From contig CBDCKW010000005.1 of the NCBI GenBank assembly GCA_965218435.1, positions 32,001 through 96,000 on the forward strand: a DNA stretch of 64,000 bases, in the 5' to 3' direction. The DNA comes from Truepera sp. (GTDB lineage Bacteria > Deinococcota > Deinococci > Deinococcales > Trueperaceae). Within the stretch, counting starts at the first letter, position 1; each line of letters opens with the position of its first letter. The translations under genes and the position numbers were made by a program. The notes under the pieces are model-generated. The model saw only the letters and a program-made list of their open reading frames with translations. It did no database searches and was not told where the DNA came from. Positions 25,634-32,909 of the stretch are shown piece by piece.

Positions 25634-28023
25634 GCTGGGTAAAGAAGTGGCATTACTGCCACTCCCTCCCCTAAGAACCGGACGTGCGAGTTTCCCCGCA
25701 TCCGGCTCAAGCTGTTCAAAGCCCCGGTGTTGGGGCCAGTTTCACAGCGTCGAATCGTCGGCTATGAATCTGACTATGGCAGTTGGGATGGATCATCAGC
25801 AAGTTGGATTGTCGATTATCACCGCCGCTGGCTCGTGGGATAATGTGATGGACATGCCATCCCTGTTCTCCCGTAAGCTTTTGGCGGCATACCGGACATG
25901 TTCCTCCTTGTTTTAGCCAAAGGGAACGCAACCTCTGTCGTCCGTCTAGTGAGGTCCTCATTTTGAAGGTCAAACGCTCTTCAAAGTAGGCTTCCCACCG
26001 GGGGTCGAACGGGTTGGCCTCCGTTTTGACCTTGATGTGTCGCTTAATGGGTACGTCGCCTGCGTTAAACAGTCTTGTCCATTGAGGCGTTCCATCGTTT
26101 AGGGTTTCCCCTGTTTTCGCCGCGAATACCCAGTTCCGGCTTCCCTTAGAGATGAAGTATTTATCCTTCAACCAGTGAGTGCCTTTGCCAGGATGACGGC
26201 GTTTTATCCAGCGCCATAGGGTTTGCCAAAGCTCTTTATTCACTGACTGAAACGTTTCGCTAGCAACAACATGTCTGTGATAGTTTGCCCATCCGCGTAT
26301 CACCGGGTTGAGTTGTTTAATCACATGGCTTTGTTTTGCCGTTGGCTGACGTTTCACGATTTCTCTGACTTTATCCAAGAACGTCTTGACGCTCTCTTTT
26401 GACGGCTTAATGAGTAGCTTGCCGTCGTACTTGCGGATATTTTGCCCTAAGAAATCGAACCCCTCTTCGATATGGGTGATTTTGGTTTTCTCTTGCGAGA
26501 GTTCCAAACCCCGAGCTGCCAGAAACTTGGTAATCAGGGGTTTAACTTCATTTTCTAACAACTCTTTTGAGTAGCCAGTCACAATGAAGTCGTCTGCATA
26601 CCGAATCAGATTGACCTTCTAGGTGAATCGTTTTCCATCAACCGTTTTCCGTTTGAAGCCTTTGGTTAACAGGCATTCGAGGTCATCCAGGGTCATATTC
26701 ATCAACGTTGGCGAGATGGGGCCGCCCTGCGGTGTCCCTGCCTCTGTTGGGTAGAGGGTCTTGTTGTCAATGAACCCAGCCTTCAGCCACTTGCGGAGCG
26801 TTACCTTGTCCGTGGGGATATGGTTCAGCATCCACTCGTGCTGAATCGTGTCGAAGCAGGCTTTGATGTCACCTTCCAGAATCCACTGAGCAGACGCTTT
26901 TGTTCCGAGGGAGTTAAAGCACCCTTCAATGGCGTCTGCCGTGCTTCGTTCTGGCCTGAACCCATACGAGTTCTTATCCGCTGTGGTCTCCGCGACGGGT
27001 TCGAGAGCCAGCAGGTAAAGTGCCTGCATCGCTCTATCCTTCATCGTGGGAATACCCAGCGGGCGCATCTTGCCATTGCTCTTAGGGATCCCGCCTCAGC
27101 GGGCTTGGTTTGTAACCATGCCGTTTGAGGGACACGATGGCTTGAGATTTGGCCGCCGGGGTGGACCAGGTTGCCCCGTCTACACCCGGCGTGTTCTTGC
27201 CTTGATTCTCCGTCACTCGCCTGACAGCTAAAGCTTTGGCCGAGAACGAGTGGGTCAGCGTCCACTGCAAGGCTTTCACCTTGCCATGTCGGCCTTCCTG
27301 TGTCGCCTTTACAATACGCGCCTGGAGTTTCCTCACCGTTTGGTAGCACTTGGCCCAGTCGATGCTGTGCCAGTCCACGTTTGAGTGGGAGGATGCACAC
27401 GCTTTAGCGTTCATTTGCCTTTCCTCCTTAAGAGATTCTTCAAGCTCCCTTGTAACGAACAACCATACGGAAGTCTGCCCGCTTTCGCGTGGGGTGATGT
27501 CGCGGCTGCTCAACCCCTATCTGCCCCATTACAGAGCAGCGTTCGCTTTCTCCGCGCTCCTCTACCCACAGCCCTATCGGCCCGCCTTGCGGCTTGCTTT
27601 CCTTTACAGGAGGACTATGGGCTTACCGTGTTTCATCTAAGTAACAACGATGGGTTAGACCCTGCCTCTTCACCGGTGGCCGTTTTATCCGTGTAACCCC
27701 AGCCAAGAACAGGGTTAACTGAGCCACGTACCTTTTGGTTCAAGCCTGTCAGCGTCTTTGGCTTGTTCTTGATGACGATGTTTATCAGCAGTTCACATGT
27801 GTTGGTCATACCATCGAGCCCAGTCCCCTGACCGCTTTACGCTAGCAGCCAACGCTTTTACCTCACGGTTCGTGCGTAATCTTTCGATTCGGGTACTCTT
27901 TTCTCGGCAGCTTCACACCAGAGCGTTACCACCCTCGCATGTGCCGATAGGCTACTGTTGACGGAACAACAGGTTTTGTCGTCAGAGACGCAAAACAATT
28001 ACTTAGACGACTTCACGTCGCAC
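25634..28023 (-). mobile_element. Group II intron (IIB, chloroplast-like class 1)
   Basis: 5' end GTGCG; domain V GAGCCGGATGCGGGGAAACTCGCACGTCCGGTTC; domain VI ending TTACCCAGC; inserted 8 nt after the stop of 28032-28580. Confidence 0.9.
25716..27414 (-). pseudogene. ltrA: Intron-encoded RT/maturase/HNH endonuclease, inactivated
   Basis: RVT_N, TPGVDG, GTPQGG, RYADDF and HNH motifs; frameshift near 27090 and TAG at 26619-26621. Confidence 0.9.
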
Positions 28024-28031
28024 CCTGACCT

Positions 28032-28580
28032 TCAAGCCGCACGGAGCACCTCCACCTCGGGCAGCTCGCCCGCTACCAAAGCTTCCCTGACGGCTTTCTC
28101 CAGGTTGACGACCGCGAGCTTGAGTTCGTAGGCGTGAAGCCGCTGCGAGCGGAGCTTCTTGACCATCTCCTCAGCGAGTGCGTGCTCCCACAGCCAAGTC
28201 TTCCACGACTCGTGGAGCGGCAGCCGGAGCTGTTTGGACAACAGTGTGTAGAAGCGCCCCGGCAGGTCCTCTTCGTGTTCGCAGATGACCAGCTCGCCGC
28301 GCAGCACGGTTTTCGAGAGCAGGAGGCCGTGAAACGCGCCGGACGGGAGGCGTTCGGTCAGCAGCTTGCCGCCGTCTCGTGGGTTCATGCGGACGCTGTA
28401 GGTCCTCACCTCGTTATGGAGGACGGTGGTTTCGCCTTTCATGAGGCGCGCCCAGATAGCCTTGACCGCCTCGCGTGAGCCGACCAGCGATAGGAGGTGA
28501 GCGTAGCTTTCTCTGCCGGTGCCGAACACGGCCTCGTCGACGTGACACGCAAAGCCTTTGGTCTTTAGCAGCGGGACCAC
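28032..28580 (-). CDS. Hypothetical protein (mobile-element type)
   Basis: 182-aa ORF with LSLVGS.EAVKAIWA.L and LPLHESW..WLW; function not recognised. Confidence 0.7.
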   Translation of the reverse strand: MVPLLKTKGFACHVDEAVFGTGRESYAHLLSLVGSREAVKAIWARLMKGETTVLHNEVRTYSVRMNPRDGGKLLTERLPSGAFHGLLLSKTVLRGELVICEHEEDLPGRFYTLLSKQLRLPLHESWKTWLWEHALAEEMVKKLRSQRLHAYELKLAVVNLEKAVREALVAGELPEVEVLRAA

Positions 28581-28584
28581 GGCT

Positions 28585-28755
28585 TTACCGTTCGGGCCAG
28601 AGCGACAACCAGCGAGTACCGTAACGTGCGGCGGCGCGCCGATGTGCGGGACGAGCCGCGGAGAGTGTCGTAAAGCGCCGGGTGCAGCCTGTTTTGCGGT
28701 AGGTGAGCACCCAACCTTTTGCCTGTCCAGCTATCGTATGGGCGACTTGGTTCAT
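28585..28755 (-). CDS. Small basic hypothetical protein (56 aa, below the ORF-track cutoff)
   Basis: SD GGAAGGTG, then MNQVAHTIAGQAKGWVLTYRK...WPER*; ends 4 nt before the next start. Confidence 0.45.
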   Translation of the reverse strand: MNQVAHTIAGQAKGWVLTYRKTGCTRRFTTLSAARPAHRRAAARYGTRWLSLWPER

Positions 28756-28948
28756 ATGAGGCACCTTCCTTTCGAGAAGTTGCCCCCATGCTGCTCGTGT
28801 TAGCGAGCGTCCTTTTTAAGTTGTAGGCGAGCTTAGCGTTCAGAATTGGTTGTGCGTCTGCTTGCGGCGCTTGGTCCGGCGAAAGACGAACCACAAAGGA
28901 AACGACACGAACCAGAAGAACGTCAAGCCCGTGTCGACGATGCTTTGT

Positions 28949-29440
28949 CTAATTGAGGTTCCCCTGCGCCGCTCGCCTTTTGAGCAGCCCGTCGATACGC
29001 CGGACGATGCTGTCAAGCGTCGCCTGCGCTTCATTGGAGTCTTGCAAGCTCACCTGCACGTCGTTCTCGCCGAACTCGAGCCGGGGCTCGCCGTTACCCA
29101 GCCACTCACGCACGAAGGTCAAACCCTGCACGTAACCGCTGAGCTGCGCGACCTTGGTCTCGAGGGTCAGGTAGAGCGCCAGTTCATCTCGCTCGAACGC
29201 TCTACTACGCTCGGCCTTAAGGCGTTCGAGCGCGATCTGAGCGTCTTCGAGGCTCCGGTCGAGTTCAGGCAAGATGCCGTCCAGTTCGTCTAAATCGTCA
29301 CGGTAGCCTTCACCTGGCAGCGCGCTGCCGAGGATAAACACCTCATCGTCCGCTTCATAATAGACCTGGCGTTTGACATCGTGCTCGTCCTCGGTCTCGA
29401 ACAGCCCGTCTCGGTCTTTATCTTTCATGAGCTTTAGCAT
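28949..29440 (-). CDS. Acidic coiled-coil hypothetical protein
   Basis: SD GAGGAG; heptad-like LDELDGILPELDRSLEDAQIALERL. Confidence 0.7.
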   Translation of the reverse strand: MLKLMKDKDRDGLFETEDEHDVKRQVYYEADDEVFILGSALPGEGYRDDLDELDGILPELDRSLEDAQIALERLKAERSRAFERDELALYLTLETKVAQLSGYVQGLTFVREWLGNGEPRLEFGENDVQVSLQDSNEAQATLDSIVRRIDGLLKRRAAQGNLN

Positions 29441-29555
29441 AACGTTGTCTCCTCGTTTGGGTGTAAGAAAGGGAGAAGAACCTAAACCAGGTTTAGGTTC
29501 AGGTTCTTCGTCGACACGTTATACGAGATAACGTGCCCGCCTGAGTGCTCAGGTC

Positions 29556-30857
29556 TTAGGCAGCGTTCACAGTCTGCTCGAGCGTCTTAAAGCCGTCCAT
29601 GATGCTCGGGATCATCCGGGCATTCGTGGCCGCTTCAAGTCTCGCGTGGGCAAGAGCTGCGACAACACCTTTCGGCGCTTTACGATCACTTTGCTTGAGC
29701 TGCGTTTCAAGCAAGGTGACGATGGTCTCGGGCACGTCGGCTTCCGCTTCGTCCCTGGCCTCGGCATCATCGGCTTTGATAAGCTCACGTCGAGCTTTTA
29801 CCTCAGCGGTGACTTTCTCGGCCGTTTTGCGACCTTCGAGCCATGCGTCCGATGGTGCTTCTATGGGCCAGCGAGGACCCTGGGTACGTGGTGCCGGTTG
29901 TACCCTGATAGGTTTCGCCAACTCCGCTGCCCAGTAACCTGCACTCCCACCGCGACCACCTTTCTGCGGCGGCAGCGGGGGCACGAAGTCACTTACCTTC
30001 GGCCCGCCTGCCAGCTCAGCTAACGCGTCCTGGTAACTTGCTTCACCCGCTTCGGAGACAAGCTCGTCGGCACGTTCGGCGACCAGAGCGCGTTCTTCGA
30101 TGTCGTCTTCATCACCAAAGTGGGGTGACAGAAGCGGATCGAGGTTGCGGCTGGTGTCTCTGACAAACCGCGCGTGCTCAAAGCTCGGGGCTGAAGCACC
30201 GAACAAAGAAACGCGGCGTATCGGATCACGGGCGTCGAGTTCGGCGGCTTCTTTCCAGGTGATGTCGGCCTTGTACCCAAGACGCTGTATCACCCCGAAG
30301 TCCCGACCGCTGTTCTGCATGAAGTCTTCTTCAAGGTCCCACGGCGCGACTTTGGTCAGCGTAAGTGACCTGGTCAGCGGGTGGGTGCGTTTGACGAGCG
30401 TGTGCCAGCCATTTCTGGAGGCGGACTGCTCATCCCACAGCTCTCGAAGAAGCTCTTTGAGAACGCGGCGGTGGTTTCTCTTGCAGCGGAGGTCTAAACG
30501 ACCCGAAGCTGCTGCGGGGGCGACTTTGTTCACCACGAACTTGGCGAAGTTCGGATTGTTACGCAGCCGCTGCCCGAACTCTTTCCTGACCATCTGCTCA
30601 CGCGAACGCCGGTTGACGTCGTCAGCAGAGGACGAGTAAAAAGAGAAGAGCACCACATCCGAATTCACGAGGCGGACGAGGAGCCTCATGGCGAGAGGGC
30701 GGACGTCATCGGGACAGACAAGTCGAACGTTTCCGTCCAACACATCTGCTGCTCTCTTACGAGCTTCCTGGGCAAACTTGGCGTCTGCCTGATAGCGCCC
30801 CAGAAACCCTTTGACACTCTGACCAAACACAAACGTATCCTCCTGCTGGTTTTGCAT
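29556..30857 (-). CDS. Orphan 433-aa protein
   Basis: Start placed at ATG 30857 after SD AGAAAGGGG; long ORF, no confident family. Confidence 0.75.
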   Translation of the reverse strand: MQNQQEDTFVFGQSVKGFLGRYQADAKFAQEARKRAADVLDGNVRLVCPDDVRPLAMRLLVRLVNSDVVLFSFYSSSADDVNRRSREQMVRKEFGQRLRNNPNFAKFVVNKVAPAAASGRLDLRCKRNHRRVLKELLRELWDEQSASRNGWHTLVKRTHPLTRSLTLTKVAPWDLEEDFMQNSGRDFGVIQRLGYKADITWKEAAELDARDPIRRVSLFGASAPSFEHARFVRDTSRNLDPLLSPHFGDEDDIEERALVAERADELVSEAGEASYQDALAELAGGPKVSDFVPPLPPQKGGRGGSAGYWAAELAKPIRVQPAPRTQGPRWPIEAPSDAWLEGRKTAEKVTAEVKARRELIKADDAEARDEAEADVPETIVTLLETQLKQSDRKAPKGVVAALAHARLEAATNARMIPSIMDGFKTLEQTVNAA

Positions 30858-31003
30858 GTCTTTCCCCTTTCTTACAACTGAGTTCAGACAGACCTGAGAC
30901 TTGGTAGTTTGGCCTATCTGCTGTGAGCCTAGCAAACCCTGGAAATCCCTGTGCTGTTTAGGTGCGTAAGGGACGCAAAAACGGCGTACACGCAGCAAAG
31001 GAT

Positions 31004-31032
31004 TTGCACCCCGATAGAGTTGGTGCTACACT
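31004..31032 (+). promoter_or_regulatory. Sigma70-type promoter for a putative antisense sRNA
   Basis: TTGCAC-N17-TACACT with extended -10 TGn. Confidence 0.65.
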
Positions 31033-31038
31033 CTAGGG

Positions 31039-31119
31039 GCATTTCAATCCTTCTGGATTGCACTGAGTTACCAGGCGGCAGAGTTTACTTGGTAGTTGCT
31101 CACTGCCTGGGCTTTTCTT
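31039..31119 (+). ncRNA. Putative ~80-nt antisense sRNA
   Basis: 5' hairpin CAATCC/GGATTG, single-stranded ACUGAGUU, long hairpin with loop ACUUGGUAGUU, then U-rich tail; both motifs are complementary to the leader of the 433-aa gene. Confidence 0.55.
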
Positions 31120-31129
31120 GCCCCGACAA

Positions 31130-31152
31130 CAAAAAAGCCCCGCACTGGGGCT
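31130..31152 (-). terminator. Intrinsic terminator of the Uma2 gene
   Basis: Minus strand AGCCCC-AGTGC-GGGGCT followed by a T run. Confidence 0.8.
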
Positions 31153-31174
31153 CGCGCACAAATTTGTGAAGGCG

Positions 31175-31729
31175 TTAGCTGTCGAACAGCTCGCTGATCG
31201 GCAGTTGCCATCCCGGTACAACTTCACCACCGTCGAGCGTGTCGTCTACCCCCAGAACCTTCACATCGGCATCGGGAGCGTGGACGAACACCTGCTGCCT
31301 GCGCGGGTTGACGACCACGACCATCTTGGAGCCCGCTTCCAGCCACTCGGCCACCTTGTCGCTCACCTCGGTGTAGAGATCAAAGGGGGAGACGACTAGG
31401 GCGGCCAGGTCGGGCGCACCGGGCCAGTAGCCCTGAACCGGGCCTACCTCGTCGAGCCGCTTCTGACTGATGAAAGCGGCGTCGGGTGCGCGGACGGTGT
31501 CGGGATTGCTGGCGAGTTTGAAGCCCGTTTCGGCGGCGTAGACCTTACCGAGCCTTTTGGCCTTCACGAAGTTTCGCAGCTCGGCAGCGAACTCGAGCGC
31601 GAGCATTCCATGTTCGTTTCCTGCGGGTGCCATCTTCTTCAGCTCCCCCTTTACTAGTTCATAGCGAAAGCCGTCGTTGGGACAGCGGAGGAGTTCGTCG
31701 GCTGTGGTTAGCTGTACCTGGGTGGTCAC
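31175..31729 (-). CDS. Uma2 (DUF820) endonuclease-like protein
   Basis: RYELVKG, VRAPDAAFIS, APDLA...VSP, KV.EWL.AG; GTG start after AGGAGG. Confidence 0.9.
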   Translation of the reverse strand: MTTQVQLTTADELLRCPNDGFRYELVKGELKKMAPAGNEHGMLALEFAAELRNFVKAKRLGKVYAAETGFKLASNPDTVRAPDAAFISQKRLDEVGPVQGYWPGAPDLAALVVSPFDLYTEVSDKVAEWLEAGSKMVVVVNPRRQQVFVHAPDADVKVLGVDDTLDGGEVVPGWQLPISELFDS

Positions 31730-32008
31730 GTCTACCTCCTTTTGGTCCTCACAGTATAGGAGGCCCGAACCTTTTAAGGCAGACTGCACGGCACGTGCGA
31801 TGTTTAGGGGTGCTTCACGCTCCCCTCGACCTCGAACATGACTCGGGTTGTGATGCCTTCGTGCTCTATAAACGCCTTCGACACGGTTTCCGACCGCCTG
31901 TATGGTGACCTTTCTTACTAAGCCGTACGCGTTGAAAGTCAGAGGGTCGTCCTCCGGGTAGTCCTCGTCCTGGCAGCCGTTCCCACGGTGTCTAGCCCAG
32001 TTGTGTAT

Positions 32009-32311
32009 TCAGTTGAGGGTGTGCTCGCCCTGTCCTACTGGCGTTTGCTGGGCGTGCTCGGCTCGCTCGAGCAGCTCCTGATTTTCTCTTCTCTTGAGCT
32101 CGATGAAGCGACCCAGTATCCCGCGCCGTTCCAGTTCCCAGCGCAGCTCGTTGAGTGGAGTTTGTAACGACATGACGTTCTTCATGTCGCCTACGCGCAG
32201 AGCGCGAACTACCTCGGTGCTGATGTGGTTGTAGGCGAAGATGAGGGGGAACAGTTCGAGCCGCTGCGGGTCGGTGAGGTCCAGGGAGAGAGTCACTTTA
32301 GCGTCCTTCAT
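32009..32311 (-). CDS. Hypothetical protein
   Basis: 100-aa ORF with ATG start directly after the DsbA-like gene. Confidence 0.5.
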   Translation of the reverse strand: MKDAKVTLSLDLTDPQRLELFPLIFAYNHISTEVVRALRVGDMKNVMSLQTPLNELRWELERRGILGRFIELKRRENQELLERAEHAQQTPVGQGEHTLN

Positions 32312-32314
32312 TAA

Positions 32315-32909
32315 CTAAGCCTTGGATGGTGTTCCAGTCGGGGTTGGCGTAGGCTTGACCTTGCACCACCACGGTGGGCGTTCCCCGAATGCCGATCCCC
32401 TGGCGCACAAGGTGTTCTGTTCGACCTCCTGAGCAGTCGAGCCTTTCTCAAGACACCCGCGCAAGGGTTGCGACTCGAGCCCTCGCTTACCGGCCAGCTT
32501 GACCAGCGCCTCTTGGTTCACGCCGGGCATCTCGAAAAAAGCGCTTCATGTAGGGCTGAAAACGCTGCCTCTCCCTGCCTTGCCGCGCAGAGTGCGGCCG
32601 CCGCGGTAAGTTTCGAGTCTCACCCAGCATCCCGATGGGAACGACGGTGAAGCTTAGGTCTCCGTTAGCAACGAGGGACTCGGCTTCTGGTATGACCTGT
32701 CCCTCGAACGTCCGGCAGTGGGGGCAGCGGTAGTCGGTCAAGACAACCATGCTTTCCGGGGTGTCGACCTGCCCTAGCGTGAGCCCGTGAAGGTTTCGCA
32801 GGGTGTCCACCTTGAAGGGAGCGCGGGCGCGGTAGGCGCTGCTTCCGAGGTAGAGCAGGGAGAGTGCGGAGAGGACGATGCCGGTTGTGAGGGTAAGACG
32901 CCTGTTCAT
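32315..32909 (-). pseudogene. DsbA/thioredoxin-fold protein, frameshifted
   Basis: N-terminal TM, TDYRCPHC; downstream part continues in other frames; TAGGGT 6 nt before the ATG. Confidence 0.7.

Follow-up and report, generated by a model that had tools for sequence, protein, structure and literature searches.

The window, a 64,000-nt stretch of Truepera sp. DNA, corresponds to positions 32001-96000 of contig C5 in the genome under study (G000). C5 is 685 kb long and carries its own ParB, and it is probably a second replicon. The locus is centered on an orphan ORF of 433 amino acids (P0001), which heads a same-strand run holding two orphans, a group II intron, and Xre/RES, E2-D, and ThiF genes (Table 1). 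Genes of these kinds mark mobile elements. The ATG taken as the start of the ORF is backed by an N-terminal F-x-F motif that is kept in homologues of 37-44% identity. A downstream GTG with a good Shine-Dalgarno (SD) sequence, picked by a crude gene caller, was set aside because this motif is conserved. Two divergent extended -10 motifs lie upstream and are invariant in all four close copies of the locus.

Table 1. Positions of the ORFs and predicted RNA features at the locus, in window coordinates.
Feature	Position	Strand	Remarks
163-aa orphan ORF, downstream	28949-29440	-	Local pairing is possible between its SD and the left-arm region
Left arm, predicted anti-SD fold-back element	29462-29479	-	About +77 to +94 past the stop
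14-bp hairpin with a poor U-tract	29475-29509	-	Directly 5' of the left arm
P0001, 433-aa orphan ORF	29556-30857	-	ATG at 30857
Right arm, SD region of the 433-aa ORF	30859-30876	-	-19 to -2 of the ATG at 30857; predicted to be targeted by the sRNA 5' domain as well as by the 3' arm
Second sRNA pairing seed	30877-30884	-	At -27; adjoins the right arm
5' leader hairpin	30885-30920	-	Loop 30899-30909 (-52), complementary to the sRNA loop
Extended -10 motif (TGnTAnnnT), predicted mRNA promoter	30926-30934	-	mRNA start near 30920
Extended -10 motif, predicted sRNA promoter	31024-31032	+
Predicted antisense sRNA, ~80 nt	31039-31118	+	Fold z -4.15
sRNA 5' domain	31039-31070		Predicted to pair with -27 to +4, AUG included
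sRNA terminator hairpin	31071-31110		Bears loop 31087-31097

Much of the window is repeated on the same replicon, positions 1-31562 corresponding to G000:C5:274091-309299 in a duplication of ~31 kb with ~98% identity along most of it. The duplication is mosaic around the 433-aa gene, and each copy carries a different sRNA/leader allele. Between the paralog (94%) and the window there is no difference over 30200-30799 and very little over 29200-29499, and divergence sets in from the leader outward, which reads as though a leader/sRNA module may have been swapped onto an unchanged coding and 3' region. A third sRNA/leader module, without an ORF, is found at L002:7250-7550 (G000:C5:236.25-236.55 kb) and is followed by a pair of transposase-like ORFs, which we take to be IS630-like. 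The sRNA 5' domain of this module is that of the paralog and could act on the paralog in trans; its loop base has no matching leader in the genome. Right after the stop of the 163-aa ORF, the paralog alone carries an insertion of ~210 bp (L001:6480-6685) that resembles, by eye, the 3' end of a group II intron, and no Rfam match was obtained for the L004 sequence covering this insertion. The group II intron of the window itself lies at 25634-27973 on the minus strand (Rfam RF00029 and RF02012), with an RT-maturase-HNH ORF that is fragmented in the window and less so in the paralog. In the close copy L003, an insertion ~30 nt past the stop (L003:6340-6462) replaces the 3' hairpin and arm and begins a transposase-like ORF, presumably IS982-like. 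Upstream, the window (31175-31729, minus strand) and L003 (4130-4681) each carry a Uma2 and a DsbA-like gene, and the Uma2 terminator (31135-31153) directly abuts that of the sRNA.

The 433-aa protein has an N-terminal tandem repeat of ~55 aa (HHalign 84%, E 7e-6) and a helical C-terminal domain, and no strongly hydrophobic segment was found in it (best 19-residue hydropathy 1.45). Searches of Pfam, NCBIfam, PHROGs, PDB sequences, and PLSDB gave no family match, and none to a known Rep family such as an antisense-controlled plasmid Rep; no transposase match was found. A DinI match in Pfam was rejected, being confined to 3 of 29 family members (best E 0.0009), with P0001 not among them. Atlas matches scored 0.76-0.81, below the usable level. 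Nothing was returned at E ≤ 0.001 by Foldseek against the PDB (pLDDT-55 model) or against viral models (pLDDT-68 model), a DUF4326 row at E 1.1 in the latter search being a lead only.

Homologues of the ORF numbered 39 at 57-93% identity among the 8000 candidates scored and fell into 19 clusters at 50% identity. Among the 362 other genomes of the order, 3 carry distant homologues, each of them within the same family; with G000 this makes 4 of 363. Further DNA loci were found in one metagenome contig and in no viral or genome contigs, and the leader DNA was found only in G000 among 128 genomes, bar one 22-nt match. The homologue in G263 shares about 24% protein identity and is encoded by unrelated DNA. 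The G262 homologue precedes DUF932, GemA, AAA, and DUF2201 genes. A leader-peptide-like ORF of 57 aa ends just before its start (L005/L009), and 8 nt of a hairpin loop ~51 nt before that ORF are complementary to the 3' hairpin tail, a match that would be at chance level by its length, yet stands at the offset conserved in the family. The G265 homologue (L007/L011, G265:C4:976-3481) and its predicted sRNA lie on a 242-kb contig, oriented divergently from parAB, a setting in which a role in replication or partition is possible; this homologue carries a C-terminal extension that overlaps the next gene, and it has no 3' arm.

The two arms of the inverted repeat are 18 nt long and 1379 nt apart, with 89% complementarity (16 of 18 Watson-Crick pairs), and among the inverted repeats listed for 28000-32500 they rank first. 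The first-pass annotation had described them as inversely complementary, with 12 nt perfect and 17 of 18 paired when G-U is allowed, had identified the right copy with the SD region of the gene, and had noted no target-site duplication (TSD); all of this was borne out, and no TSD was found flanking the arms. Its statement that the left copy follows a terminator-like hairpin needs a small correction. The arm does lie 3' of the hairpin, but its first 5 nt, in mRNA sense, form the base of the 3' strand of that hairpin, which may be a leaky terminator or a barrier to 3'-exonucleases.

As a bare repeat, this structure is unremarkable. Three repeats of comparable quality (12 nt perfect, 16 of 18 paired, 100-1500 nt apart) occur in the window, and real 64-kb chromosome chunks (n = 61) contain 1.9 on average, with at least one in 82% of them; the mean for shuffled sequences (n = 20) is 0.35. 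The placement of the repeat, between a ribosome-binding site (RBS) and the sequence immediately 3' to a strong post-stop hairpin, is not ordinary. A 12-nt perfect complement between positions -25 to -1 and the 150 nt past the gene's own stop was found in none of 4273 crudely called genes (maximum 11), a count that leaves out the 433-aa ORF because the caller picked a later start for it.

Two-site pairing of the divergent sRNA with the mRNA leader is the firmest part of the regulatory reading, firmer than the fold-back, and from the patterns of sequence variation we consider it very probable. The sRNA loop is complementary over 11 nt to the loop of the mRNA 5' hairpin at -52, and the 5' 31 nt of the sRNA can pair from -27 across the SD to the AUG. 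The loop base covaries between sRNA and leader in three of the four close copies (window, paralog, and L003), and the second seed, of 8-9 nt, covaries in the same three. Cofolding of cognate sRNA and leader gave -19.4, -20.3, and -16.2 for these three copies, against -4.6 to -12.2 for cross pairs. In the fourth copy (C5:236 kb) sRNA and leader are mismatched, and no ORF stands behind them. Leader repeats at -52/-51 and -27 to -20 from the ATG were found in the window, the paralog, G263, and G265; in the last two, whose DNA is unrelated, they are direct repeats at -52/-51 and -20/-26. An antisense extended -10 motif lies upstream in the window, G263, and G265, and none was found in G262. The predicted sRNA 5' end, GCAU, is common to the window and G263, and the G263 RNA can pair over its own AUG. 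By itself the 5' domain is not a unique match, with 11, 303, and 385 of 4273 RBS regions scoring equally for the window, G263, and G265, respectively; the case for the sRNA therefore rests on covariation and geometry. Rfam returned no match at the locus or in five loci. The leader loop was also checked by hand for a repZ-type pseudoknot, which was discarded since it does not hold in L003.

The fold-back of the 3' arm onto the RBS, which the first-pass annotation had proposed as a means by which the mRNA sequesters its own start, was compared with controls. Positions -25 to -1 pair with the gene's own hairpin-distal 32 nt at -24.2 kcal/mol in the window, -26.9 in G263, and -24.1 in G262, and in each of these loci the RBS region pairs best with its own segment. 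None of 333 controls, all of them genes that have a terminator-like hairpin, reached -24.1 kcal/mol, the best standing at -21.7; the value for the paralog, -17.7, was equalled by 19 of the 333. When whole transcripts were scanned, the best RBS partner anywhere began at +74 past the stop in the window (margin 8.3) and at +73 in G263 (margin 12.2 kcal/mol). Of 768 control genes, 754 were scanned for margin, and none had a margin of at least 8 with its best window no more than 150 nt past the stop, or of at least 12 anywhere. The controls were drawn from G000 only (not G262 or G263), with crude gene calls and a scanning step of 4 nt versus 2 nt for the loci. Among the 11 window genes scanned, only the 433-aa gene has a comparable fold-back margin. 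The arm ranks third in G262, and no RBS-complementary arm was found in the scans of the paralog, L003, and G265, giving two clear, one weak, and three negative results over six loci, of which only G263 is independent of the choice made in the first-pass annotation. L003 has no right arm, and its 3' region is broken by the insertion described above.

Whole-mRNA folds, which are equilibrium folds of 1.5 kb and ignore ribosomes, pair the arms with a probability of about 0.98 in the window and about 1.0 in G263; in the paralog fold the arms are unpaired and the best RBS partner lies elsewhere. When the arm was removed in the model, predicted unpairing of the SD rose from 0.24 to 0.54 and from 0.21 to 0.69. 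The mRNA strand paired better than the opposite strand in G263 (-26.9 versus -23.0) and G262 (-24.1 versus -16.8), whereas in the window the opposite strand was equally good (-25.6, versus -24.2 on the mRNA strand). The G263 arms share only 9 perfect bases, with interruptions, and their pairing extends ~25 nt beyond the hairpin base, for which reason a processing barrier would suit this hairpin better than a clean terminator. In run X6, a depth-15 contig keeps a window-like right arm and loose ends show a shorter, altered left arm; these arms are linked by depth only, and by hand count ~14 pairs remain, with no compensation. Both paralogs have a local hairpin over the start region, which could act as a further, early lock.

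From these comparisons, the fold-back is probably part of an RNA lock. The first-pass proposal of a self-sequestered RBS is supported by the arm of unrelated sequence at the same place in G263 and by arm pairing in the whole-mRNA folds, but it does not extend to the paralog, G265, and L003, which lack the pairing. Non-conservation of the repeat in homologous loci had been named as evidence that would count against it, and conservation is partial, in that the 94% paralog keeps the left arm and not the right and G265 is armless, whereas G263 has an arm. The further suggestion that the fold-back complements the sRNA is likewise favored by the G263 arm and weakened by the paralog, in which the right arm tracks the cognate sRNA.

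The best-surviving alternative, which we regard as somewhat unlikely, is that regulation truly lies with the sRNA and that the inverted repeat is incidental. It would then reflect an SD rich in purines that happens to face a hairpin tail rich in pyrimidines, the match having become perfect in this single allele by chance or recombination. Bare repeats of like quality do occur 1.9 times per 64 kb, the right arm of the paralog covaries with the sRNA and not with the left arm, the arm is absent or weak in three to four of six loci, and the X6 arms show no compensation. Against this, G263 has the arrangement at the same offset in unrelated sequence, beyond anything in the 333 terminator-matched and 754 margin controls, and these sets also control for base composition. 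Alternatively, the long-range pairing may be real and serve to couple the gene to the next one. An sRNA on the RBS would leave the arm to fold onto the SD of the 163-aa ORF, shutting both genes, and an arm on the upstream RBS would free that SD. Two observations favor this: within 29430-29560, the local fold (z -4.66) has the arm region paired to the SD and start of the downstream gene, and the hairpin is without a good U-tract. It is improbable in our judgment all the same, as the genes past the arm in G263 are on the opposite strand and leave it no downstream RBS to control.

The first-pass annotation had also offered two readings at the DNA level, neither of which held up. Were the arms recombination sites of an invertible segment, a flip would part the ORF from its promoter and switch the gene off, since promoter and leader lie outside the arms, and the 12-bp core is perfect. 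That core is lost in the paralog, however, and the G263 arms are interrupted. The joints shown (15 of 24; runs X1, X3, X4, and X6) are all skips with no strand change, the right arm has no joints in runs X6, X9, X8, and X3, from contigs of a kind that drop rare forms, and no intact recombinase neighbors the locus, the nearest integrase-like ORF being a 154-aa fragment 5.3 kb away; DNA inversion is unlikely, and strongly so for a phase switch operating through these arms. Least credible is that the arms are the terminal inverted repeats of a 1.4-kb non-autonomous element, for although the ends do read TGT...ACA, none of the marks of IS, MITE, or Tn7-like elements (TSD, empty site, dispersed copies of both ends) was found, the arms recur at up to 3 mismatches only at the left end of the paralog and in six scattered 3-mismatch matches, homology with the paralog and L003 continues unbroken through them, and the ORF is not transposase-like by any match.

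The reading that we favor, with a confidence somewhat above even, is that the inverted repeat is a fold-back lock acting together with antisense sRNA control on the 433-aa orphan, in the manner of a type I toxin-antitoxin system. It draws on both complementarities, the allele-specific covariation of the sRNA sites, the geometry kept in distant homologues, and the analogous 3' arm of G263, as read from the DNA, and it supposes that both RNAs are transcribed and that the pairings form in vivo. In the predicted mRNA of ~1.45 kb, the pyrimidine-rich arm just 3' of the strong hairpin would return onto the message's own SD. The predicted sRNA of ~80 nt would catch the nascent mRNA loop-to-loop at the 5' hairpin and, after this contact, cover the RBS. 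Completed messages would be silenced by the 3' arm folding onto the SD, leaving the mRNA translatable only while nascent or once 3'-trimmed to the hairpin, and the trimmed, active form would again be intercepted by the sRNA. Protein would thus be made only when the short sRNA is absent, after loss of the element or on its entry into a new cell. Such expression would fit a protein that is harmful or alters the host and whose gene leads a run of mobile-element genes. A wider reading, which we put forward tentatively and consider doubtful, is that a mobile-element family at the level of the Trueperaceae uses the full type I RNA program for a cytosolic toxin or host-takeover protein of 430 aa over a 1.4-kb transcript; the program may then include, with equal tentativeness, a 5'-3' lock, 3' maturation, a kissing antisense RNA, and allele-specific "incompatibility" variants.

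The closest parallels are hok/Sok and aapA/IsoA, in which, according to the sections of PMC6733600, PMC9841398, and PMC8167048 that treat them, the SD of the full-length mRNA is locked by a 5'-3' long-distance interaction, 3' trimming activates the message, and the antisense RNA blocks the trimmed, active mRNA, through kissing loops in the case of aapA1. Their processing logic accords with a lock arm placed immediately 3' to a stable hairpin. The locus differs from them in having no hydrophobic membrane segment and in its sRNA, which is divergent and partly complementary, whereas theirs are fully overlapping cis antisense RNAs. The first-pass comparison with hok/sok and aapA/IsoA does not extend to membership, on account of protein and mRNA size. 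Type I systems, as outlined in the part of PMC8594479 that sets out their dimensions, have a protein of 20-60 aa and an mRNA of 150-400 nt, and the locus was not filed among them because, at 433 aa and about 1.45 kb, its product and its predicted message are larger than these ranges allow. The predicted 80-nt RNA would fall within another type I feature, an antisense RNA of 60-200 nt acting on the translation initiation region.

A small RNA beside the gene and pairing through short shared repeats recall the divergent trans-type antitoxin loci tisB/IstR and timP/TimR, and Fst/RNAII of the Enterococcus par locus, the last of which uses two direct repeats, as given in the portion of PMC8167048 dealing with it. 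Here there are two repeats in a divergent arrangement, one of which is loop-loop and the other over the RBS and AUG, covariation is allele-specific, and the target protein is large; the Fst genes, by contrast, are convergent. Control of a large-protein mRNA by an antisense RNA is also reminiscent of RNA-OUT of IS10. The IS10 transposase mRNA is also held by an intramolecular fold-back. The present locus differs from IS10 in having neither a transposase match nor element ends and in an sRNA that is not cis-overlapping. Lastly, in leading a run of genes on a replicon that is likely mobile, the locus resembles establishment or leading-region genes, and transient expression in naive cells would follow. 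For such genes of conjugative plasmids (pLS20 EGeRS1/2 and ssDNA promoters), PMC8708921 gives, in the section concerned, a protein repressor, ssDNA promoters, or a mechanism not yet known. Neither an oriT nor a relaxase was located at the locus, whose putative leading-region status is deduced from its neighbors. The open-access papers searched yielded nothing on such a locus type for Truepera, for Deinococcus type I toxin-antitoxin systems, or for establishment or zygotic induction.

What would be new here is the combination of a 5'-3' lock with an antisense RNA on a 1.4-kb message, a design known for toxin mRNAs of 150-400 nt. On a message of this length, ribosome loading should far precede synthesis of the 3' arm. 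How a long-distance lock can operate against coupled translation is a question raised in PMC6733600, and the locus makes it testable in an extreme case. Natural, mutually mismatched sRNA/leader alleles, two of them on one replicon, would provide a ready set of orthogonal RNA repressors. Size-limited searches for type I systems would overlook loci like this one. Tight double silencing would also single out this uncharacterized family of proteins as possible toxins or establishment factors, and if the wider reading is true, the Trueperaceae elements would carry an RNA-only addiction or arrival switch far beyond the known size range.
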